From Escherichia coli (GTDB taxonomy: Bacteria > Pseudomonadota > Gammaproteobacteria > Enterobacterales > Enterobacteriaceae): a stretch of 64,000 nt of DNA. Positions 8,253 through 63,828 of the stretch are shown one piece after another. Position numbers and translations under genes: made by a program. The stretch lies in NCBI RefSeq assembly GCF_003991155.1, contig NZ_CP031293.1; one strand, 5' to 3'. The notes under the pieces are model-generated. The model saw only the letters and a list, made by a program, of their open reading frames with translations, was not told the DNA's origin and did not search any database. The stretch's first letter is position 1. Every line of letters begins with the position of its first letter.

Positions 8253-9629
8253 TCATACGTCCGCCCCTTGTGCATATCGTCTGCCACGCGCAGCAGGCGC
8301 ATTTGATGCTGTGCAAATCTGTCTGGCTTCATCCTGGTCACATGCAACAAAGTGTCCGTTACAGAACCGCTGGTAAACCGTACCAAGTGAGCCAAAACGG
8401 TTTTTCGTCACGATGATTTCAGCAAATGGCGCGGCGCTACTGTTCTCGTCATATACCGCTTCCCGATAGAGCATGATGATTGAGTCTGCGTCCTGCTCAA
8501 TGCTTCCTGAATCACGCAAATCTGCGTTTGTCGGGCGTTTGTTTGGTCGCTTCTCAACATCGCGCGAAAGCTGACTCAGGGAGATAACAGGCGTTTTCAG
8601 GTCTTTCGCCATCGCCTTCAGGCTTCCGGAGATGTGAGCAATTGCGAGGTCGTTGCGGTCTGCTTTCGGCTTCTCAATCAGGCCAAGATAATCCGCCATG
8701 ATTAGAGACAGGTTTGGATTTTCCTGTTTATGCCGTTCTGCGATTGAGCGTATTTCTTCGACCGATAACCGCGAGGCATCGACTACCCATACATCCAAAT
8801 CTGCAAGCTGACTCATGCCGTTAGCAACACGCGCCCAGCCTTCGTCATCCATCGATGCAGGATTTCGCAGTACGCTAACCGACATCCTCCCGGCGTTGGC
8901 AATGCTTCGCTCTGCAATCTGCAATGCGCTCATTTCCATCGAGAAAATCAACACTCCGCGCCGGACGTCAGAACCGGGAATAACGCGGCTTGCAACGCCT
9001 TCAGCAATCTTCAGCGCCAGCTCGGTTTTCCCCATACCAGGACGAGCGGCGATAATCACCAGGTCTTCCGCGTTCATCCCTCCGGTGATGGCGTCAAGTT
9101 CTTCGATTCCGGTCTTCAGGGTATCTGACTCTTCTCCGTTCCTCAGACGCCTGTCAAGCGTGTCAGTGTAGTCAGTGATGATTTCCCCTAACCGTACAGG
9201 TTTAACCTCGTCACGGGGCTTTCTGATGGCTGAAAGACGCTTTACAAGCTCGTCCATCGCCTGACTCGATGTATCGATGGTTCCGCTCTGAATTGGTTCA
9301 CGCATTTCATCCATGATTTCCAGCACCAGACGGCGGTGATAGTTATCCGCGACCATTCCGGCATATCCTTTCAGGTTTGCGGCACTCGGGCAGTTTTTGC
9401 TGGTCATCAGGATTGACGTGAAATGCTCCTCTCCGCACGCCTCGGCAACCATCAGCGCGTCGATTAGGTTTCTGTTTCTCGCCTGCTTGCGGATAACCTC
9501 GAAGGCTTTCCGGTAGAGCGGAATTGAAAACGCTTCCGGCTCCAGTGTTGCCAGAACGTCGCTGGCGGTTGGAGTTAATCCACCAATCAGCAGACCGCCG
9601 ATAACGCTCGCTTCGATATCCTGTCTCAT
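8253..9629 (-). CDS. Replicative DNA helicase, DnaB family (phage P-gene position)
   Basis: Walker A GMGKTE, DnaB C-terminal motifs ([23 protein letters not shown]). Confidence 0.85.
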
Positions 9630-10573
9630 GCAATCCCCCTGTCTGCAAACTTCCCTTCCCGTACTCCCGTTAACGAATCTTCCCTCAGCAGGTAATCAAA
9701 ATCTGCCGTCCATCCCGTGTCGTTGTCTCCGAAGTAAAACGGCTTGGCCTGATGCACAAACGCCCTGACATACGCTCTGAAACCGTCCACGTTTGGCGTT
9801 TTCAGTTGCGGGATGATTTTCTTCAGGCGGCGTTTGCGTTTCTCGTTGACCGCAACAGCGTGTGGCAGTCTGTCACCGACTTCGGTGTTGTAAGCGTTCA
9901 GGAAGGATTCGTAGTCGATTCGTTCTGCCTTGCGACGTTCAGGTTTAACCTGCCCATCGCCTCCCCCATTGGGGGGTAGGGGGGTATTATTTATATTCTT
10001 GTTAATACCTTCTTGTTCATGATGTGCGGTTGTTTGTGCGGCTTCATGTGCGCTTTCATGTGCGGCATGTACGCTGAATGCCGCGCCATTACTGGCTTCA
10101 TCATGTGCGGCATCATGTGCGGTTGTTTGTGCGGCTTCATGTGCGGGTGAACTGTCCATTTTTTGAGCATATTCATGGTAATTTGTGATGGTTATCACAC
10201 GACCTTTTTGCTTCTCCCCATCAATGGAGATCATCCCCTCTTTCACAAAAACCTGAAGCATCCGCTCAACCTGATCACGGCTTGCCGGCTTGCCATGCCT
10301 GTCGCATAACTGAAGACCTAAATCAGCTGCTGTCACAACCAGTTGACCGGGTTGCAGATGCCATTCATGACCTTTGAAATTCGCTTTGTATGGCTTTCTG
10401 GCGGCATTCAGGAGAAGGTTTTCCCACAGGGTGCGAAGATAAACATCTTTCGCCCATGACTGTTTCAGAATGCTCCGGTACAACGGAATGTAACCAGTTT
10501 TCTGGTTCTCCATCCTGTTGCTCCTGCGCTCGTGTGCGGCGCTGAAATCGTAGATTTTTGCTGTATTGCTCAT
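9626..10573 (-). CDS. Replication initiator (O-like replisome organiser)
   Basis: Position between cII-side genes and helicase; contains internal nucleotide iterons; start overlaps helicase-side gene boundary. Confidence 0.65.
10022..10145. repeat. Iteron cluster (putative phage origin) inside the O-like gene
   Basis: 31-bp perfect direct repeat ATGTGCGGTTGTTTGTGCGGCTTCATGTGCG at 10022-10052 and 10115-10145 plus several TCATGTGCGG units; adjacent AT-rich tract at 9985-10010. Confidence 0.5.
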
Positions 10574-10575
10574 AA

Positions 10576-10848
10576 CTACCTGCCTTGACGAAAGACCTTA
10601 AGAACATCGTTAAACTGACTTACGGATATGTCTTCTTTGAGAAGCTTTTCCAGAAATGCGTTTGGAATGAACGTATATCCCTCCTCTTTTGGTAGAGACG
10701 AGAGCAACGCCCTCGCCTCAGCCTTCAGAAGCTCAGTTCTGGCAACTTTCACAAAAGAGATTTGAGTTCTTTCATCAATGGAACGAAGGAAGCGCAAACG
10801 CTTAGCTTCTTTGTGTGTATCAGGTGGATTAAAGCCTTTGTTTCGCAT
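10576..10848 (-). CDS. Hypothetical protein between cII and O (90 aa)
   Basis: MRNKGFNPPDTHKEAKRLRFLRSIDERTQ...; GAGG RBS; stop abuts O start. Confidence 0.5.
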   Translation of the reverse strand: MRNKGFNPPDTHKEAKRLRFLRSIDERTQISFVKVARTELLKAEARALLSSLPKEEGYTFIPNAFLEKLLKEDISVSQFNDVLKVFRQGR

Positions 10849-10870
10849 ATAATTACCTCGCTGGATGTTG

Positions 10871-11164
10871 TTAAAATTCCATTTGTATTTGATCAGAACG
10901 CTCGGTTGCCGCCGGGCGTTTTTTATTGGTGAGAATCGAAGCAACTTGTCGTGCCAATCGAGCCATATCGTCGTCAACGACGCCCCATTCAAGAACAGCA
11001 AGCAGCATTGAGAACTTTGGAATCCAGTCCCTCTTCCACCTGCTGATCTGCGACTTATCAACTCCCACAGCTTCCGCTGTCTTCTCAGTTCCAAGCATTG
11101 CGATTTTGTTAAGCAACGCACTCTCGATTCGTAGAGCCTCGTTGCGTTTGTTTGCACGAACCAT
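10871..11164 (-). CDS. cII: Transcriptional activator CII
   Basis: MVRANKRNEALRIESALLNKIAMLGTEKTAEAVGVDKSQISRWKRDWIPKFSMLLAVLEWGVVDDDMARLARQVA..., near-identical to lambda CII as recalled. Confidence 0.9.
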   Translation of the reverse strand: MVRANKRNEALRIESALLNKIAMLGTEKTAEAVGVDKSQISRWKRDWIPKFSMLLAVLEWGVVDDDMARLARQVASILTNKKRPAATERSDQIQMEF

Positions 11165-11221
11165 ATGTAAGTATTTCCTTAACAAATAAGAAGTTATGCG
11201 CATCAACTTATGCGCGTTGTA

Positions 11222-11266
11222 TTCCCGCATTTCGGCGGGAATGAGGACCATGACTGTTAAAGAGCA
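11222..11266 (-). promoter_or_regulatory. nutR (boxA GCTCTTTAAC + boxB hairpin)
   Basis: On minus strand boxA at 11256-11265 then boxB TCCCGC-CGAAAT-GCGGGA at 11222-11241, between cro and cII. Confidence 0.55.
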
Positions 11267-11272
11267 ATTTGC

Positions 11273-11458
11273 TTATGCCGCTTTGCGGTAAGCGCTTTCT
11301 TGATACTTCAGGGCGCCAGCTGTAACGACTTCCAGTCGATAGGCGTCTTTCTCTGGGATGACTTCCTTCCACTGAGAGACTGCTGCGTCGCTAATGCCTA
11401 ACGCTTTAGCTACAGCACGCTGGGTTCCGAAGTGGTCGATAACATCTTTCTTGTACAT
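11273..11458 (-). CDS. cro: Cro-like repressor
   Basis: 61 aa HTH protein (QRAVAKALGISDAAVSQW) transcribed divergently from cI. Confidence 0.75.
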   Translation of the reverse strand: MYKKDVIDHFGTQRAVAKALGISDAAVSQWKEVIPEKDAYRLEVVTAGALKYQESAYRKAA

Positions 11459-11538
11459 AGACTCGCTCCGAAATTAAAGAACACTTAAATTATCCACTAA
11501 AGGAATCTTAAGTCAAGTTTATTTAAGATGTCTTAACT
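11459..11538. promoter_or_regulatory. OR operator region between cro and cI
   Basis: Inverted repeats with TCTTAA/TTAAGA half-sites (ATCTTAAGTCAAGTTTATTTAAGAT, TTAAGATGTCTTAA). Confidence 0.45.
11488..11516 (-). promoter_or_regulatory. PR promoter
   Basis: Minus strand TTGACT-17 nt-ATAATT upstream of cro. Confidence 0.55.
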
Positions 11539-12189
11539 ATGAAAACTCAATTGATGGGAGAGCGCATTCGCGCTCGGAGAAAAGAACTCAAGATCAGGCA
11601 GGCCGCACTTGGAAAGATGGTCGGCGTGTCTAATGTTGCCATATCTCAGTGGGAACGCTCTGAGACAGAGCCAAATGGAGAGAATCTTCTCGCCCTGGCT
11701 AATGCGTTGAAGTGTTCCCCTGACTATCTGATGAAAGGAGAGGAAAGTCTTTCAAACATTGCCTATCACAGTAGGCATGATCCAAGAGGGTCATACCCTC
11801 TGATTAGCTGGGTGAGCGCAGGATGCTGGATGGAAGCTGTAGAACCATATCATAAGCGTGCAATAGATAACTGGTACGATACAACCGTAGACTGTTCAGA
11901 AGATTCGTTTTGGTTGGATGTGAAGGGAGACTCAATGACGGCTCCGGCCGGTCTCAGTATCCCTGAAGGAATGATAATACTCGTCGATCCTGAAGTAGAG
12001 CCGCGTAACGGGAAACTGGTAGTTGCAAAGCTCGAAGGAGAAAACGAGGCAACTTTCAAGAAGTTAGTTATTGATGCAGGCAGGAAGTTTCTAAAACCAC
12101 TTAACCCACAATATCCGATGATCGAGATCAACGGAAACTGCAAAATCATCGGCGTAGTTGTCGATGCAAAACTAGCAAACCTTCCATAA
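11539..12189 (+). CDS. cI: CI repressor (HTH + S24 LexA-like peptidase domain)
   Basis: N-terminal HTH (VGVSNVAISQWERSE), C-terminal S24 motifs (GDSM, K in VVAKLEGE). Confidence 0.9.
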   Translation: MKTQLMGERIRARRKELKIRQAALGKMVGVSNVAISQWERSETEPNGENLLALANALKCSPDYLMKGEESLSNIAYHSRHDPRGSYPLISWVSAGCWMEAVEPYHKRAIDNWYDTTVDCSEDSFWLDVKGDSMTAPAGLSIPEGMIILVDPEVEPRNGKLVVAKLEGENEATFKKLVIDAGRKFLKPLNPQYPMIEINGNCKIIGVVVDAKLANLP

Positions 12190-12190
12190 G

Positions 12191-12212
12191 GGGGCATTCG
12201 CCCCTTTTTTTT
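12191..12212 (+). terminator. Intrinsic terminator after cI
   Basis: GGGGC-ATTC-GCCCC followed by TTTTTTTTATTT. Confidence 0.7.
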
Positions 12213-12280
12213 ATTTCCTTTAAAAATCAAAGCCAAACTTAAGTTACGAAAGAAAATTTAAGTTTTCTTCAAAAATACTC

Positions 12281-12309
12281 TTGACCATTAATTAAAGAGA
12301 TCTTAAATT
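12281..12309 (+). promoter_or_regulatory. PL promoter with flanking OL operator half-sites
   Basis: TTGACC-17 nt-TAAATT; flanking palindromes CTTAAATTTAAG and TTAAGT repeats. Confidence 0.5.
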
Positions 12310-12355
12310 TAAGCCATCAGCAGGACGCTGGAAGCCAAACGGAACAGATTGGCAG

Positions 12356-12396
12356 GCTCTTTAACATTGATGGGATTGTCCCGCCGAAATGCGGGA
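12356..12396 (+). promoter_or_regulatory. nutL (boxA GCTCTTTAAC + boxB hairpin)
   Basis: boxA 12356-12365; boxB TCCCGCCGAAATGCGGGA 12379-12396, identical to nutR boxB. Confidence 0.55.
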
Positions 12397-12795
12397 ACCA
12401 AAGAGTAGTTGGCTTTGGGATTGGATGAATGAGCAGGCTGATGCTCGACCAATGTATAAACAGCGCTCATGGCAAGCAGTAACCAATCTGCGCCTCAAGA
12501 CAGCGTCACTGGTAGTGCGGGCGCTCTAACCAGTAAGCCGGAGTTCAGCACCGGCCATCCAATCGCCAAAGTCAATTCCATAGGCGTTATGCAGCCGCCA
12601 CCTATTCAAGAAAGCTGCACAAGAGGTAGGAGGATTTATGTGAATACTTACATTCAATTGAGAGATTAATTAAATAGAACTGATCGAGCAGAGTCCATAA
12701 AGGCTCATAAATGCTCTTCCATCCCCGTCTAATTGGCGGGGAAGGAAACCACTTTGTAATAAAAAAATTCCAAAGTTGTTTCATCGGAGGTCAAC

Positions 12796-13730: not shown

Positions 13731-13864
13731 TCGGCCTTTATTTTTGGCACTAACAACAGAATAAACACTGCACTGTGTATTCATTCCAACGAGTGAATAC
13801 ACGGAGCAATGTCGCTCTTAACTAAACAGGAGCCGACTTGTTCTGATTATTGGAAATCTTCTTT

Positions 13865-13891
13865 GCCCTCCAGTGTGAGGGCGATTTTTTT
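13865..13891 (+). terminator. tL-like intrinsic terminator
   Basis: GCCCTC-CAGTGT-GAGGGC followed by GATTTTTTT, 12 nt upstream of next start codon. Confidence 0.5.
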
Positions 13892-13903
13892 GATGGAGGA
13901 TAT

Positions 13904-14872
13904 ATGAGTGAAGTAACAGATTTAGTTGTTATTGAAAAAGCAAATGCAATGACTGTATTTCAGTCTGCCGACCAGATTGAAGAAATCCTTCAAAGGGTTG
14001 AACGTGAAGTTATGTCCTTTGTGCCTGATATCACAACGGCAAAGGGCAGAAAGGAGATCGCTTCTCTGGCGTATAAAGTTGCGCAGACGAAAACATATCT
14101 CGATGGTCTTGGCAAAGACCTTGTTGCTGAACTGAAGGAAATTCCAAAGCTAATTGATGCCAACCGCAAGACAGTGCGCGATCGCCTTGATGAGCTGAAA
14201 GCCAAGGCACGCCAGCCTCTTACTGATTATGAGGAAGAACAGGCGCGGATTAAAGCCGAAGAAGAAGCTAAGGCAGCAGCTGAAGCTCTCGCAAAGCAAA
14301 TTGAGTCTGACCATGAAATAGCTATTTTGATGGATCGCGAATTTGACCGCCAAAGAGAAGAGGCAAGACTCAAAGCGGAGCAGGAAAAGCGAGAGCATGA
14401 AGAACGCTTAAAAAGAGAAGCTGAAGAGAAAGCCAGAGCAGAAGCCGAAGCAAAGGCAAAAGCCGAAATTGAAGCAGCAGCAAGGCGAGAAGCAGAAGCT
14501 AAGGCCGCAGCGGAACGTGCAGAGCGTGAACGCATTGAAGCCGAGCAACGAGCACAGCGCGAAGCAAAAGAGGCAGCAGAACGAGCTGAAAGAGAAAAGC
14601 AGGCGGCAATTGAAGCAGAACGCCGAAAAGCACAGGAGGAGGCTGAACGAATCCGGCGCGAGGCTGAAGCAAAAGAGCAAGCCAGAATAGCAGAAGAAAA
14701 AAGAATCAAGGACGAAGAAGAGCGTAGAGCAAAGGATAAAGCTCACCGGAAAGAAGTAAATAACAAAATACTTGCTGACCTTATCAAGGTTGGCGCATCA
14801 GAAGATGTTGCTAAAAATATCATAACAGCCATCGTAAAAGGCGAAGTATTCGCAACAAAAATAACCTACTAA
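13904..14872 (+). CDS. Hypothetical protein with long charged E/R/K/A-rich single alpha-helix segment
   Basis: N-terminal about 110 aa domain, about 170 aa low-complexity AEAK/ERAE repeats, short C-terminal domain; GGAGG RBS. Confidence 0.5.
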   Translation: MSEVTDLVVIEKANAMTVFQSADQIEEILQRVEREVMSFVPDITTAKGRKEIASLAYKVAQTKTYLDGLGKDLVAELKEIPKLIDANRKTVRDRLDELKAKARQPLTDYEEEQARIKAEEEAKAAAEALAKQIESDHEIAILMDREFDRQREEARLKAEQEKREHEERLKREAEEKARAEAEAKAKAEIEAAARREAEAKAAAERAERERIEAEQRAQREAKEAAERAEREKQAAIEAERRKAQEEAERIRREAEAKEQARIAEEKRIKDEEERRAKDKAHRKEVNNKILADLIKVGASEDVAKNIITAIVKGEVFATKITY

Positions 14873-16126: not shown

Positions 16127-16633
16127 ATGGCAAGCAGAGGCGTAAATAAGGTGATTATCCTTGGTCGGGTAGGACAAGACCCGGAAGTTCGATACTCACC
16201 ATCAGGAACAGCGTTCGCTAACCTGACAATAGCCACGTCAGAACAATGGCGAGATAAAAATACTGGCGAGCAAAAGGAATTAACTGAATGGCATCGTGTT
16301 GCTGTATCCGGGAAACTGGCTGAGGTCGTGGGGCAGTATGTGAAAAAAGGTGATCAGATTTATTTCGAGGGAATGCTGAGAACCAGAAAGTGGAAAGACC
16401 AGTCAGGGCAAGACCGTTACACAACCGAGGTTCATGTCGGAATTAATGGCGTGATGCAAATGCTTGGCGGCATTGGCGACAGCAAACAACAAGCAGCCAG
16501 CAGGCAATCACAGAAGCCACAGCAGCAATCATCACCAGCACAACACAACGAACCTCCGATGGATTTTGACGACGATATACCCTTTGCACCAGTAACTCTC
16601 CCCTTCCCTCGTCACGCTATTCACGCAATTTAA
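16127..16633 (+). CDS. ssb: Single-stranded DNA-binding protein
   Basis: OB-fold N-terminus [34 protein letters not shown]..., Gly/Gln-rich linker, DFDDDIPF acidic tip followed by extra 15 aa. Confidence 0.9.
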
Positions 16634-39544: not shown

Positions 39545-40915
39545 TTACTTGTTCAATAACGCAAGGATAAGTTTTGTCTTTTCTTCCATCAGCGGCACAT
39601 CACCGCGCGATTCCACATTCAGGCGCACCACCGGTTCGGTGTTGGAGGAGCGCAGGTTAAAGCGCCAGTCGGCAAAGGTCATGCTGATGCCATCGGTGCG
39701 ATCCACCGCCAGCGCCTCACGGCTAAAATGCTGTTCGACGCGATTAATCGCCTCAGCGGGTTGCGCCAGTTTGCTGTTGATCTCACCGCTTGCCGGAAAC
39801 GCTGCCATCCGGTCGCGCACCAGTTCGCCCAGCGTTTTTCCTTTCAGACACACCAGTTCGGCGACCAGCAGCCACGGGATCATGCCGCTGTCGCAGTAAG
39901 CGAAATCACGGAAATAGTGGTGGGCGCTCATTTCGCCACCGTAGATGGCGTCTTCCTTGCGCATACGTTCTTTAATAAAGGCGTGTCCGGTTTTCGACAT
40001 CACCGGTGTGCCGCCCGCGGCGGTCACCACATCAACGGTATTCCAAGAGAGACGTGGATCGTGGATGATCTTCGCGCCGGGATTTTTTTCGAGGAACGCT
40101 TCTGCCAGCAGGCCGACAATGTAGTAGCCCTCGATAAACTGCCCTTTTTCGTCAAACAGGAAACAGCGGTCAAAATCGCCATCAAAGGCAATGCCCATAT
40201 CCGCGCCGTGTTTAATGACCGCATTGCGGGTGTCGTCGCGACATTCCGGCAGCAGCGGGTTAGGAATACCGTTGGGGAAATTGCCGTCCGGCGTGTTGTG
40301 CACTTTGATCAATTCCACAGGTGCGCCGAGGGCTTTAAAGCGGGCTTCGATAGCGTCCACCACCGGACCCGCTGCGCCGTTCCCGGAGTTGATCACCAGC
40401 TTGAGCGGCGTGAGGTTTTTGACATTGATATAACCGAACAGGTGATCAACGTAAGCGTCACGCAGGTTGATTTGCTGATAGCGACCGCATTTGGTTTCAT
40501 CGACGGGAGGAAAGTCGTTGGCTTCAGCCAGACGCTGGACGTCGCGCAGTCCGGTATCTCCGCTGATCGGGCGAGCCCCCTCGCGAACCAGCTTCATGCC
40601 ATTATAATCCATCGGATTATGGCTGGCGGTAACTTCGATGCCGCCATCCACGCCGAGATGGAACGTGGCGAAATAGATCTCTTCGGTGCCGGACATGCCG
40701 ATATCCAGCACATCGACGCCCGCATCCTGTAAACCTCTCGCCAGCGCCAGTTTTAAGGTTTCGCTGGTGAGGCGGACGTCACCGCCTAACACAATGGTTT
40801 TCGGTTTGAGAAATTCGCCATAGGCGCGACCAATGCGCCACGCAATATCTTCATTCAGTTCTTCGCCTAATTTCCCGCGAATATCATAGGCTTTAAAGCA
40901 GGTTAATTTTTTCAT
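39545..40915 (-). CDS. manB: Phosphomannomutase (O-antigen cluster copy)
   Basis: 456 aa; near-identical in nucleotide sequence to cpsG at 62266-63636 except the 3' about 45 nt. Confidence 0.85.
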
Positions 40916-40939
40916 ATAAAAACCTTACCAATAATAAAA

Positions 40940-58724: not shown

Positions 58725-59325
58725 GCCGTTTTTTGCCTGATGCGACGCTAACGCGTCTTATCAGACCTACAAGATCCGAGCACAGAACCGTAGGACGGAT
58801 AAGGCGTTCACGCCGCATCCGGCATTCAGTGCCTGATGCGACGCTGACGCGTCTTATCAGGCCTACAAGACCCGAGCACAGAGCCGTAGGACGGATAAGG
58901 CGTTTTACGCCGCATCCGGCATTCAGTGCCTGATGCGACGCTGACGCGTCTTATCAGGCCTACAAGATCCGAGCACAGAACCGTAGGCCGGATAAGGCGT
59001 TTTACGCCGCATCCGGCATTCAGTGCCTGATGCGACGCTGGCGCGTCTTATCAGGCCTACAAGACCCGAGCACAGCCCCCCAGGACGGATAAGGCGTTTT
59101 ACGCCGCATCCGGCATTCAGTGCCTGATGCGACGCTGACGCGTCTTATCAAGCCTACAAGATCCGAGCACAGAACCGTAGGCCGGATAAGGCGTTTTACG
59201 CCGCATCCGGCATTCAGTGCCTGATGCGACGCTGGCGCGTCTTATCAGGCCTACAAGACCCGAGCACAGCCCCCCAGGACGGATAAGGCGTTTTACGCCG
59301 CATCCGGCAACCGTTGCCGGAACCG
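58725..59325. repeat. Tandem REP/BIME array (about six units of about 98 bp)
   Basis: Repeated GCCTGATGCGACGCTGACGCGTCTTATCAGGCCTACAAG...GGATAAGGCGTTTACGCCGCATCCGGCA units. Confidence 0.8.
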
Positions 59326-59336
59326 AAAACAGCCAT

Positions 59337-60815
59337 TCACCCCGCCCGTAAAAGCATTTTCATTTTTTCGCTGCGACAAAACTGACGCTTCACTTCCACT
59401 ACCAGCGGATGGCGTGACAGCACAATCATCACCACAAACGCCAGCACGCCCGCGGCTATTTGCACCGCCAGCAGCATGCCCAGAGCCATTTGCCCTTTCA
59501 GTACAATGCCCAGCGCATAACTGACCACCAGCGTCGGCAGCGAGAGATAAAACGGCAGCCATAAACTGAGGATGTACTGGCGATAACTGGAACCAAGAAC
59601 CGGTTTAATCATCACGAAGTAACTCAGAATGGTGTTGATAATCTGCACCAGCAGGAAACCGAGCGTGACGCCGATTGCGCCCGCCATCTGCCCACCAATA
59701 ACAATCGCCGGAATAAACAGAAAGGTTTTGAATACGTTGAATTTAAAGCTGATATCGACCCGCGCTTTCGCCATCAGCAGCGAACCAATCGGGTTCCCTA
59801 CTGAGCGCAGCAGCCCCACCACACACAGCAATTGCAGCACCGGAATAATGCTGCTCCACTTCTCACCAAAGACCAGCGGTACAAAGTTATTCGACACCAC
59901 CATCAGCCCCAGCAGCGCCGGAAAGTTGATAATCCCCACCACCGACAGCAGCTTGTAGAAGTTGATGCGCAGCTTTTCGGTGTCGTCCTGAATTTTGGCA
60001 AATGCCGGAAACAACACGCGGGTGATGATCGGATTCAGCTTCATCGGCGGCACAACGGCCACGTTGTACGCCAGGTTGTATCCCCCTGCCACGCCCGCAC
60101 CGAGAATACGCGCCAGCACCAGCGTTGAAAGGTTGGTGTTGAGATAGTTGATGATGCTGTCCGCCGTCAGCCAGGCACCAAAGCGTAAGTTCGGTGCCAC
60201 CGACGCCAGCGAGAAGTGCAGACCGGGGCGATAAATTTTGCGGCCAAAGTAGCCAAACAGCAGCGTTCTTACCGCACTATTGACCAGATAACCGAGGATC
60301 GCGGTCATCGCCAGTGGCCAGAAATGGGCGCTAACCACCGTAAAAGTGAAGCCCGCCAGCACCGCGCTGGTTTCGATCATGCCGATTTTGTTGAACTCCA
60401 GCTCTTTTTGCATCAACGCGCGGAACTGCTGCCCGTGGGGGATCACCACAAACGCCAGCGACAATGTTTTAATCAACGGTGCCAGGTCTGGGTTGTTCAG
60501 CACGTCACCAATGAGATCACTCAACAAAAACACCGCCACGCACACCACAAGCCCCAGCCCGACGTTCAGCCAGTACAACGTGGTAAGTTCCAGGTGACTG
60601 ATTTCTTTTCGCTGAATAATCGAGTTAGCGATACCGAAGTCAGAAAGCGTATCTGCCAGCGCGATGATCACCAGCGACACGGTAAGCAAACCGAACTGGT
60701 GGTTGTCGATAATCCGCGCCAGCACGGTCATCTGCACCAGCCCGAGGCCGATGATGATCACCGTGGCAATCGCCGACCACTTCGCGCCGCTGATGGTTTT
60801 TTCACGTAAGCTCAT
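59337..60815 (-). CDS. wzxC: Colanic acid flippase
   Basis: 492 aa polytopic membrane protein. Confidence 0.85.
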   Translation of the reverse strand: MSLREKTISGAKWSAIATVIIIGLGLVQMTVLARIIDNHQFGLLTVSLVIIALADTLSDFGIANSIIQRKEISHLELTTLYWLNVGLGLVVCVAVFLLSDLIGDVLNNPDLAPLIKTLSLAFVVIPHGQQFRALMQKELEFNKIGMIETSAVLAGFTFTVVSAHFWPLAMTAILGYLVNSAVRTLLFGYFGRKIYRPGLHFSLASVAPNLRFGAWLTADSIINYLNTNLSTLVLARILGAGVAGGYNLAYNVAVVPPMKLNPIITRVLFPAFAKIQDDTEKLRINFYKLLSVVGIINFPALLGLMVVSNNFVPLVFGEKWSSIIPVLQLLCVVGLLRSVGNPIGSLLMAKARVDISFKFNVFKTFLFIPAIVIGGQMAGAIGVTLGFLLVQIINTILSYFVMIKPVLGSSYRQYILSLWLPFYLSLPTLVVSYALGIVLKGQMALGMLLAVQIAAGVLAFVVMIVLSRHPLVVEVKRQFCRSEKMKMLLRAG

Positions 60816-62265: not shown

Positions 62266-63636
62266 TTACTCGTTCAGCAACGTCAGCAGAGTTCGCGTTC
62301 GCGCTTCCATCAGCGGCACATCACCGCGCGATTCCACATTCAACCGCACCACCGGTTCGGTGTTGGAGGAGCGCAGGTTAAAGCGCCAGTCGGCAAAGGT
62401 CATGCTGATGCCATCGGTGCGATCCACCGCCAGCGCCTCACGGCTAAAATGCTGTTCCACGCGGTTAATCGCCTCAACGGGTTGCGCCAGTTTGCTGTTG
62501 ATCTCACCGCTTGCCGGAAACGCGGCCATCCGGTCGCGCACCAGTTCGCCCAGCGTTTTTCCTTTCAGGCACACCAGTTCGGCGACCAGCAGCCACGGGA
62601 TCATGCCGCTGTCGCAGTAAGCGAAATCACGGAAATAGTGGTGGGCGCTCATTTCGCCACCGTAGATGGCGTCTTCCTTGCGCATCCGTTCTTTAATAAA
62701 GGCGTGTCCGGTTTTCGACATTACCGGCGTACCGCCTGCGGCAGTCACCACATCAACGGTGTTCCAGGAGAGACGTGGATCGTGGATGATCTTCGCGCCG
62801 GGATTTTTTTCGAGGAACGCTTCTGCCAGCAAACCGACAATGTAGTAACCCTCGATAAACTGCCCTTTTTCGTCAAACAGGAAACAGCGGTCAAAATCGC
62901 CATCAAAGGCAATGCCCATATCCGCGCCGTGTTTGATGACCGCATTGCGGGTGTCGTCGCGACATTCTGGCAGCAGCGGGTTAGGAATACCGTTGGGGAA
63001 ATTGCCGTCCGGCGTGTTGTGCACTTTGATCAATTCCACAGGTGCGCCGAGGGCGTTAAAGCGGGCTTCGATGGCGTCCACCACCGGACCCGCCGCTCCG
63101 TTCCCGGAGTTAATCACCAGCTTGAGCGGCGTGAGGTTTTTGACGTTGATATAACCGAACAGGTGATCAACGTAAGCGTCACGCAGATTGATTTGCTGAT
63201 AGCGACCGCGTTTGGTTTCATCGACGGGAGGGAAGTCGTTGGCTTCTGCCAGACGCTGGACATCGCGCAGTCCGGTATCACCGCTGATCGGGCGGGCCCC
63301 CTCGCGCACCAGCTTCATGCCGTTATAATCCATCGGGTTATGGCTGGCAGTAACTTCAATGCCACCATCCACACCAAGATGGAACGTGGCGAAATAGATC
63401 TCTTCGGTGCCGGACATACCAATATCCAGCACGTCGACGCCCGCATCCTGTAAACCTTTCGCCAGCGCCAGTTTTAAGGTTTCGCTGGTGAGGCGGACAT
63501 CACCGCCTAACACAATGGTTTTCGGTTTGAGAAATTCGCCATAAGCGCGACCAATGCGCCAGGCAATATCCTCATTCAGTTCTTCGCCTAATTTCCCGCG
63601 AATATCATAGGCTTTAAAGCAGGTTAATTTTTTCAT
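62266..63636 (-). CDS. cpsG: Phosphomannomutase (colanic acid copy)
   Basis: 456 aa from [15 protein letters not shown]. Confidence 0.85.
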
Positions 63637-63699
63637 ATCGTTACCCTTTTTCAGGCAATAGTTGGCCCTGACCGAAACGGCCAATTTTGTTTTTGTCGT

Positions 63700-63828
<129 letters not shown>

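Follow-up and report, generated by a model that had tools for sequence, protein, structure and literature searches.

Short direct repeats within an O-like initiator gene as the probable replication origin of a lambdoid prophage in Escherichia coli

Within a stretch of 64,000 nucleotides of Escherichia coli DNA (contig NZ_CP031293.1 of RefSeq assembly GCF_003991155.1; here called the window), a gene for an O-like replication initiator of 315 amino acids (minus strand, 9626-10573) is followed by a gene for a replicative helicase of the DnaB family (minus strand, 8253-9629), the start of which overlaps the stop codon of the initiator. The middle of the initiator gene contains two clusters of short direct repeats, or iterons, on either side of a spacer, and an AT-rich tract follows them in the direction of the gene. 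We consider it likely, with a probability of roughly 85%, that this array serves a lambdoid, P22-like prophage as its origin of vegetative (theta-type) replication, placed where the prophage's initiator gene codes for a linker. This reading draws on sequence comparison and on analogy with the origins of related phages.

The identity of the two proteins is supported by several types of comparison. The initiator matches the Pfam family PF04492 (Phage_rep_O) over amino acids 20-132 (E=6.6e-15) and phrog_345, described as 'replication initiation O-like' (E=1.4e-99), and its gene has 98-99% nucleotide identity to gene O of CUS-3, JEP4, and many phages that convert their hosts to production of Shiga toxin (Stx) 2a. 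Searches with the initiator against the PDB, at E up to 1, and against NCBIfam gave no match. The Phage_rep_O region (minus strand, 10178-10516) codes for an N-terminal domain that presumably binds the repeats. The C-terminal domain (amino acids 197-315; minus strand, 9629-9985) is similar to HK97 O and P22 gp18, with 58% amino acid identity to the C-terminus of the latter (126 amino acids, E=5e-51), and presumably recruits the helicase. The helicase matches phrog_19, is similar to TIGR00665/TIGR03600, and is 90% identical to P22 gp12 over 458 amino acids. This type of C-domain adjoins a gp12-type helicase in the records of P22, HK97, and S.Inf 5-2, as well as in two loci of our diverse set described below (L098 and L106).

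Anatomy of the repeat array

A 31-bp perfect repeat, ATGTGCGGTTGTTTGTGCGGCTTCATGTGCG, is present in exact copies at 10022-10052 and 10115-10145, with a start-to-start distance of 93 bp, and is the sole exact direct repeat of at least 20 bp within the first 39 kb of the window. The period of the underlying unit is 12 bp, as given by Tandem Repeats Finder and by a repeat finder. Its core reads TGTGCGG on the plus strand, which is CCGCACA in the sense of the gene, and starts at 10023, 10035, 10059, 10104, 10116, 10128, and 10140; near-copies are found at 10047 (TGTGCGC) and 10068 (TGTACGC). In total, the array consists of eight units with a 12-bp period and one degenerate unit that is off-register. 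They are arranged on the minus strand as cluster 1, nearer the start of the gene (10104-10146, four units with the core CCGCACA in gene sense), a central spacer of 29 bp (10075-10103) that contains AGT AAT GGC GCG G in gene sense, and cluster 2, which adjoins the AT-rich tract (10023-10074). Cluster 2 has four units, starting at 10023, 10035, 10047, and 10059 (10023-10065), together with the degenerate unit (TGTACGC, 10068-10074).

The density of these cores is far above chance. Across the window, exact TGTGCGG was found 14 times compared with 8.8 expected, and seven of the 14 copies fall inside 125 bp where ∼0.02 would be expected, a local excess of hundreds of times. Every copy in the array lies inside the open reading frame of the initiator. 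All of the units have the same orientation, with cores of ∼7 bp and without dyad symmetry. Single-strand folding of the array gave z-scores of −0.9 and −1.3 for the two strands, compared with −5.8 and −5.6 for the iterons of phage HK97, and the folding of hairpins or cruciforms within the array was not significant. Two further matches were considered and rejected. A terminator-like match at 10036-10053 is an artefact of the repeat, with a weak 5-bp stem, and such matches occur at the level of shuffled sequence. A TGTGCGG at 10533-10539, near the 5′ end of the gene (amino acids 12-15, Ala-Ala-His-Glu), was discarded as a ninth iteron; it is probably coincidental, because S.Inf 5-2 retains Ala-Ala-His there and has different iterons.

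The array occupies codons 143-186, directly after the part of the gene that codes for the N-domain, and also dictates a segment of the protein. The units, which have the form xCC GCA CAy nnn in gene sense, are translated as x-Ala-His/Gln-x, and in the resulting linker (amino acids 143-187) Ala and His together account for 51% of residues compared with 10% in the remainder of the protein.

The AT-rich tract on the minus strand (9986-10020, 80% AT) is a presumed DNA-unwinding element. No other 35-bp duplex between 8 and 12 kb is as unstable, and the interval 9985-10010 reaches 85% AT. It comes after the repeats in the direction of the gene (minus strand) only. Beyond it, at the start of the part that codes for the C-domain, there is a short G/C palindrome, CCCCCA-T-TGGGGG (CCCCCATTGGGGG, 9963-9975).

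Most of these features had been described in the original prediction, made from the sequence without database searches. The pair of 31-bp repeats 93 bp apart, their location inside coding sequence, the AT-rich tract at 9985-10010 after them, the O-like character of the initiator, and a His/Ala-rich linker imposed by the repeats were all borne out, the last because CC-GCA-CA is read as x-Ala-His/Gln. Further units were also placed between the 31-bp copies, but the picture of two 31-mers with loose units between them gives way to one of two four-unit clusters and a degenerate unit around a 29-bp spacer.

Modular inheritance and constraint on the DNA

Comparison with other phages by megablast splits the initiator gene at ∼9986-10002. 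The C-terminal part (9626 to ∼9986) has 96% nucleotide identity to HK97 O, mEp213, Stx phage 1717, and others, the N-terminal parts of which are unrelated to that in the window; the mosaic junction with these HK97-type genes lies at ∼9986, beside the G/C palindrome. Klebsiella phage 2 LV-2017 and Yersinia phage vB_YenM_210.17 carry the N-terminal part, the repeats, and the AT-rich tract (9990-10526) together, with 77-80% identity; in these phages another C-domain is attached, and the gene that follows is lambda-P-like. Furthermore, N-domains that go with CGCACA-type cores occur in combination with no fewer than three additional kinds of C-domain and partner. Because the C-terminal part is shared with the HK97-type phages and the N-terminal part with the Klebsiella and Yersinia phages, the gene reads as two modules, one made up of the N-domain, repeats, and AT-rich tract, and the other of the C-domain with its helicase or loader. 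The same split is described in P22-like phages, in which specificity in binding the origin has been assigned to the N-terminal region of the O homologue (PMC2629481, PMC8022706).

The relationship between the repeat core and the N-domain was analyzed across two scans of viral contigs, which provided 80 near-identical loci and 80 diverse loci (70 of them distinct). The first scan returned only alleles with 98-100% identity, which are of no use for co-variation and were used for a test of polymorphism; the second was ordered on the most distant relative and gave the diverse set. Among loci with an N-domain at least 70% identical to that of the window (n=34), the core was CGCACA in 32 and CGCGCA in 2. 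Among those with an N-domain 41-49% identical (n=36), 34 had other cores, namely GGTAAC (14), CGATRA (11), GTCGAA/GACGAG (7), and CCWWCCG (2). The repeat sequence therefore tracks the N-domain, independent of the C-domain. S.Inf 5-2 has the same C-domain and helicase as the window and different iterons (array CCGATGAA). The chassis around the cores is retained in every clade: two clusters of 3-4 units with a 12-bp period, a constant distance of 45 bp between the last cluster 1 unit and the first one in cluster 2, a central spacer that codes for approximately PSNGAAL, and an AT-rich tract of the GAACARAACAAGAA type.

Two of the diverse loci, L096 (1501-2600) and L100 (IMGVR_UViG_2889634041_000004 and IMGVR_UViG_2872672955_000002), have amplified the unit of cluster plus spacer into tandem repeats of 81 bp or 69 bp. 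They contain at least four clusters, and the linkers of their initiators are correspondingly longer and repetitive.

A different explanation of the array is that it is a coding repeat, generated by slippage, for a flexible His/Ala linker, with no cis function in the DNA and with the origin located elsewhere. The compositional bias of the linker would fit this explanation, as would its highly polymorphic amino acid sequence and the rearranged and amplified versions in L096 and L100, which are typical of repeat instability. We nevertheless regard it as very improbable, since the core changes with the N-terminal DNA-binding domain and not with the C-domain, the length of the array is constant (the gene has 948 nt in 76 genes), and no repeat array with a higher score is found elsewhere in the prophage (1-36 kb). 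The three other tandem arrays detected in that interval, at 14372-14499 and 16494-16542, have scores no higher than that of the iteron array and fall outside the replication genes.

The pattern of codons bears directly on this question. Every unit of the versions from E. coli, Klebsiella, and Yersinia has C as the last base of its first codon, and Ala is encoded by GCA in 8/8, 8/8, and 5/6 units, respectively. Elsewhere in the same genes, GCA makes up 3/27 of Ala codons in Klebsiella and 3/30 in Yersinia; the contrast is weaker in the window's own gene, with 9/27. The first codon itself varies between Pro, Ala, Thr, Ser, Cys, Gly, and Val, and in the flanking N-domain identical codons are used at 57-62% of positions with the same amino acid between the three genera. 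Synonymous positions of the core are thus fixed across genera and adjacent non-synonymous ones vary, which argues against a role in the protein alone. This comparison across genera is free of confounding by gene conversion.

Polymorphism within the closely related set, 67 distinct alleles of the 948-nt gene, gives a similar picture. The N-domain shows the usual bias in nucleotide diversity (0.004, 0.000, and 0.021 at codon positions 1, 2, and 3), whereas the array shows no bias by codon position (0.027, 0.038, and 0.048). Outside the cores, the first and second codon positions of the linker are polymorphic ∼20 times more often than those of either domain (p=2e-14). The cores vary less than the rest of the array: 14 of 63 core positions are polymorphic compared with 36 of 69 non-core positions of the array (p=6e-4), and when singletons are set aside the figures are 4/63 and 25/69 (p=4e-5). 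The cores of cluster 1 show almost no variation over the 67 alleles. In the degenerate unit, 19 of the 67 alleles depart from the majority T at position 503, and protein variants with Ser-Ala-His imply a change from GTA to GCA that would restore the canonical core.

The AT-rich tract behaves as though it belongs with the repeats. Only 1 of its 36 sites is polymorphic, and third codon positions account for 0/12 against a background of 25% (p=0.03), so that the flank of the array is invariant at synonymous sites, again contrary to a function confined to the linker. The Klebsiella and Yersinia phages, too, retain the tract along with the iterons. The linker-only explanation is opposed also by a phage with a comparable arrangement, phage L, in which the 11-bp units of the putative origin are out of frame with each other and are read in three frames (TGT CCA ACG GAT GTC CAA CGG ATG TCC AAC); an origin as a peptide repeat is ruled out for that architecture. 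Together, module exchange, co-variation, and codon pattern point to selection on the DNA, and not only on the protein.

The spacer between the clusters contains an element that is more widely conserved than the cores themselves. On the plus strand it is CCGCGCCATTACT (10081-10093), corresponding to the AGT AAT GGC GCG G noted above, and it is common to clades with different iteron cores (loci L003-L007 and L088-L167) and to phage L (L169:2690-2706). The window spacer CCAGTAATGGCGCGGCA (10080-10096, reverse complement) and the phage L spacer CCAGTAATGACGCGGCT are identical at 16 of 17 nucleotides, and both carry CCAGTAATGRCGCGGC, which is widespread in the family. Over 22 representatives of clades with different cores, the codons of the consensus AGY nnn GGC GCG G are almost fixed: GGC is used in 17/18 and GCG in 19/20 cases, compared with 18% and 23% in the N-domains of the same genes, and the Ser codon is always AGY. 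At this divergence synonymous sites are otherwise saturated, with 34-36% identical codons. The near-fixed choice of codons suggests a function of the element at the level of DNA. P-values for the co-variation and for the codon bias of the spacer treat related representatives as independent, and their significance is overstated as a result.

Comparison with known origins and the candidate mechanism

The location of an origin within the gene for its initiator is known from phage lambda, where four 18-bp palindromic iterons and a 38-bp AT-rich tract all lie within O (PMC3349717, PMC7466680). These iterons of 18-19 bp are ∼20-24 bp apart (PMC3349717; bioRxiv 10.64898/2026.07.10.737580), and the 162 N-terminal residues of lambda O, as cited in PMC2629481, bind the origin. 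The locus in the window resembles lambda in having a Phage_rep_O N-domain, repeats in the middle of the gene that codes for the linker, and then, in the direction of transcription, an AT-rich tract of ∼35-38 bp. In both, the N-terminal half and the repeats would form a specificity module and the C-terminal half matches the partner that delivers the helicase. Unlike lambda, the units in the window number eight to nine, are direct and non-palindromic with a 12-bp period, and form two clusters around a conserved spacer; moreover, the partner is a phage DnaB-type helicase, whereas that of lambda, with its O-some and O-P-DnaB pathway, is a P-type loader of the host DnaB. The arrangement of ori-lambda put forward in the original prediction is therefore upheld for the order of the elements, which is that of lambda, the P22 rep_origin, and the phage L ori, but not for lambda-style iterons.

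Several other phages provide closer comparisons. The P22 record (NC_002371) annotates a rep_origin inside gene 18, with four palindromic iterons of ∼20 bp (TTTACCGAATCGGTAAA) at a spacing of 20-24 bp, an AT-rich tract, and a CCCCC..GGGGG element, CCCCCTAAAGGGGG, that is the equivalent of the palindrome in the window. P22 shares with the window the helicase and C-domain at the identities given above and has iterons, AT-rich tract, and CCCCC..GGGGG element in the same order; on the other hand, the N-domains have no BLASTP similarity and the repeats differ from the P22 iterons. HK97 O/P has a C-domain and helicase nearly identical to those in the window, with 96% nucleotide identity up to ∼9986; its iterons occupy the same place with respect to the junction and come directly after a T-rich tract of its own. 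It differs in its N-domain and in its four palindromic iterons of ∼20 bp (ATTAGCCGACTTGGCTAAT), which have a spacing of 23-24 bp and fold into strong hairpins. Judged by length (273 and 458 amino acids) and domain content, HK97 O/P seems to be the counterpart of what is called the 'Eru2' replication unit in Stx phages (PMC8044961).

The closest architecture is that of phage L, in gene 18 of which a putative ori has been annotated and described as an 11-bp sequence repeated imprecisely six times (MW013503; Zaworski et al., PMC8022706). Read directly, this region contains 3+3 direct units of 11 bp around the spacer CCAGTAATGACGCGGCT, and then an AT-rich tract. The two loci have in common two clusters of short direct repeats, a matching spacer, an AT-rich tract, and a DnaB-like helicase downstream; they differ in the core (TGTCCAACGGA in phage L and CCGCACA here), the period (11 and 12 bp), and the number of units (3+3 and 4+4(+1)), and the phage L origin is likewise a prediction. 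The window initiator and L gp18 are distant homologues (BLASTP, 22% identity over nearly the full length, E=4e-10). An assignment of phage L to the same N-domain family by tblastn was rejected, as queries with the N-domains of the family did not retrieve it.

Outside phages, the iteron plasmids pSC101, R6K, RK2, and P1 have direct repeats that are bound by a winged-helix initiator and lie beside an AT-rich unwinding element. Their iterons are 17-22 bp long, are spaced by about two helical turns, and are located outside the rep gene. As far as tested in the PDB and NCBIfam searches, no homology of plasmid Rep proteins to the initiator was found.

A mechanism can be proposed for the locus in which binding, unwinding, helicase recruitment, and origin activity are inferred from the lambda O/ori and P22 gene 18/12 systems, and to which the anatomy, homologies, modular inheritance, co-variation of core and N-domain, and signs of DNA constraint contribute as direct observations. 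Early rightward transcription on the minus strand would express the O-like initiator and the helicase. The N-terminal domain of the initiator, of winged-helix type, would then bind the eight to nine CCGCACA units in the two clusters, and the resulting nucleoprotein complex may destabilize the adjacent 35-bp AT-rich tract. The C-terminal domain could bring in the phage's own DnaB-type helicase (of the P22 gp12 type), leading to the start of replication. The probable phage origin of the original prediction is supported in this way by comparative evidence from module exchange, co-variation, and codon pattern.

Several observations weigh against the origin reading or limit the analogy on which it draws. 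The units do not conform to the lambda-type pattern of 18-19 bp dyad iterons bound by an initiator dimer; without the dyad symmetry of the lambda, P22, and HK97 iterons the mode of binding must differ, and the lambda analogy is weaker here. The 12-bp period is out of helical phase. The instability of the AT-rich tract places it in the top 1-2% of the window and is not unique. Co-variation is imperfect, in that two loci (L129 and L130) have CGCACA-like cores (C GCA CAT AA) despite N-domains that are ∼45% identical to that of the window. The polymorphism contrast between core and non-core positions is partly confounded, as gene conversion between units cannot alter positions that are identical in all of them. 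Finally, the literature searched on CUS-3 iterons contains no report of iterons for this type of initiator; that searched on iterons of lambdoid and Stx phages deals only with the lambda-type O proteins of 933W and P27.

Binding of the initiator, or of another protein, could also serve regulation instead of initiation. It might, for example, act in autoregulation or as a transcriptional roadblock, in titration or handcuffing, or in the incompatibility and exclusion of related phages. In plasmids, iterons have roles in both initiation and control, and co-variation with the N-domain fits any function that depends on binding. In this respect, it is relevant that lambda iterons cloned in trans inhibit the replication of phages of the same type (PMC3349717, PMC4488673). 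The invariant AT-rich tract tightly linked after the array and the match to the annotated P22 and L origins point instead to initiation, and a role in control is most likely to be additional to an origin function and not to replace it; we therefore hold a purely regulatory array to be very unlikely. The suggestion that the repeat is a hotspot for recombination and module exchange (a 'boundary sequence'), conserved for shuffling the halves of initiators and not for protein binding, would account for the mosaic junction that adjoins the array at ∼9986 and for a central spacer and AT-rich tract common to otherwise diverged clades, but it can be set aside as highly improbable, since the junction falls between the AT-rich tract and the G/C palindrome, outside the repeats, and the cores are specific to clades and so could not mediate exchange between them.

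Within the origin reading, there is a tentative possibility, which we think has the odds against it, that the family uses a design distinct from that of lambda. Initiator monomers might bind head-to-tail to interchangeable short cores with an 11-12 bp period, in two clusters flanking a fixed AGY-nnn-GGCGCGG element, which would act beyond the coding of the linker as a second site in cis, to which, for instance, a host factor might bind or the helicase be loaded. A second site is proposed because the element is conserved whatever the specificity of the iterons, even in phage L with an initiator that is 22% identical. Relatives with three-unit clusters argue against the pairing of units into sites for dimers.

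Prophage setting and implications

Genes similar to cI, cro, and cII lie upstream of the initiator, as does a pR-like promoter. An open reading frame of 90 amino acids (minus strand, 10579-10848), located between cII and the initiator, matches phrog_2519, a family of unknown function, over its full length (E=7.5e-57); the CUS-3 GenBank record has a gap of 297 bp without annotation where an open reading frame of this type would correspond. A strong terminator-like hairpin with a 12-bp stem and a T run (plus strand, 10895-10922) is antisense to the 3′ end of the cII-like gene and has no match in Rfam; in P22, the terminator of the oop antisense RNA is annotated at this position and described as lambda-like. 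Nothing in 9000-12600 matched Rfam at E up to 0.1, for which reason an RNA element is unlikely. No DnaA box (TTATNCACA) was found near the gene, and the two in the whole window are at chance level. In the early-left region of the prophage, the tandem array at 14372-14499 is a low-complexity coding repeat of the AGAAGC type, rich in Glu, Ala, Lys, and Arg, within an open reading frame of 340 amino acids (13850-14872).

The remainder of the window carries colanic-acid and O-antigen genes, which places the prophage in the chromosome of E. coli. Two phosphomannomutase paralogues, both assigned to NCBIfam CpsG, make up a diverged direct repeat of ∼1.3 kb (39583-40917 and 62304-63638, 22.7 kb apart), and a flippase of the MOP family (59337-60815) lies in the same surface-polysaccharide region; the presence of these paralogues there marks this part of the window as chromosomal DNA of E. 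coli that flanks the prophage. Between genes of the polysaccharide cluster (58766-59294) there are tandem repeats with a period of ∼97 or 194 bp, and a 26-bp piece of them is found again at 63780-63805.

The initiator gene is found in phage CUS-3, in dozens of Stx2a-converting phages, and in hundreds of E. coli prophages, and 271 of 5,426 complete E. coli genomes have a match to the greater part of the repeat region. An origin inside the gene for its initiator is a textbook concept, and equivalents are already annotated in P22 and phage L, so the advance is an incremental one: the locus would represent a type of specificity not described before, within a kind of origin that is known, in a gene that is itself widespread in databases. 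Only the bipartite design with direct repeats and the conserved element in the spacer might reward experimental work. If the distinct design proposed above were correct, origins without hairpin-forming repeats might escape defence systems that have been reported to sense hairpins at palindromic origins.

Replication of Stx phages has been reported to be required if Shiga toxin is to be produced effectively (PMC7466680), and the origin and its determinants of specificity would provide a testable target for the group of CUS-3 and Stx2a phages. The pairs of initiator N-domain and iteron core, naturally orthogonal on one chassis, could serve in the engineering of plasmids or phages. More generally, the array offers a clean case in which one stretch of DNA codes for a protein linker while it is apparently constrained as DNA.

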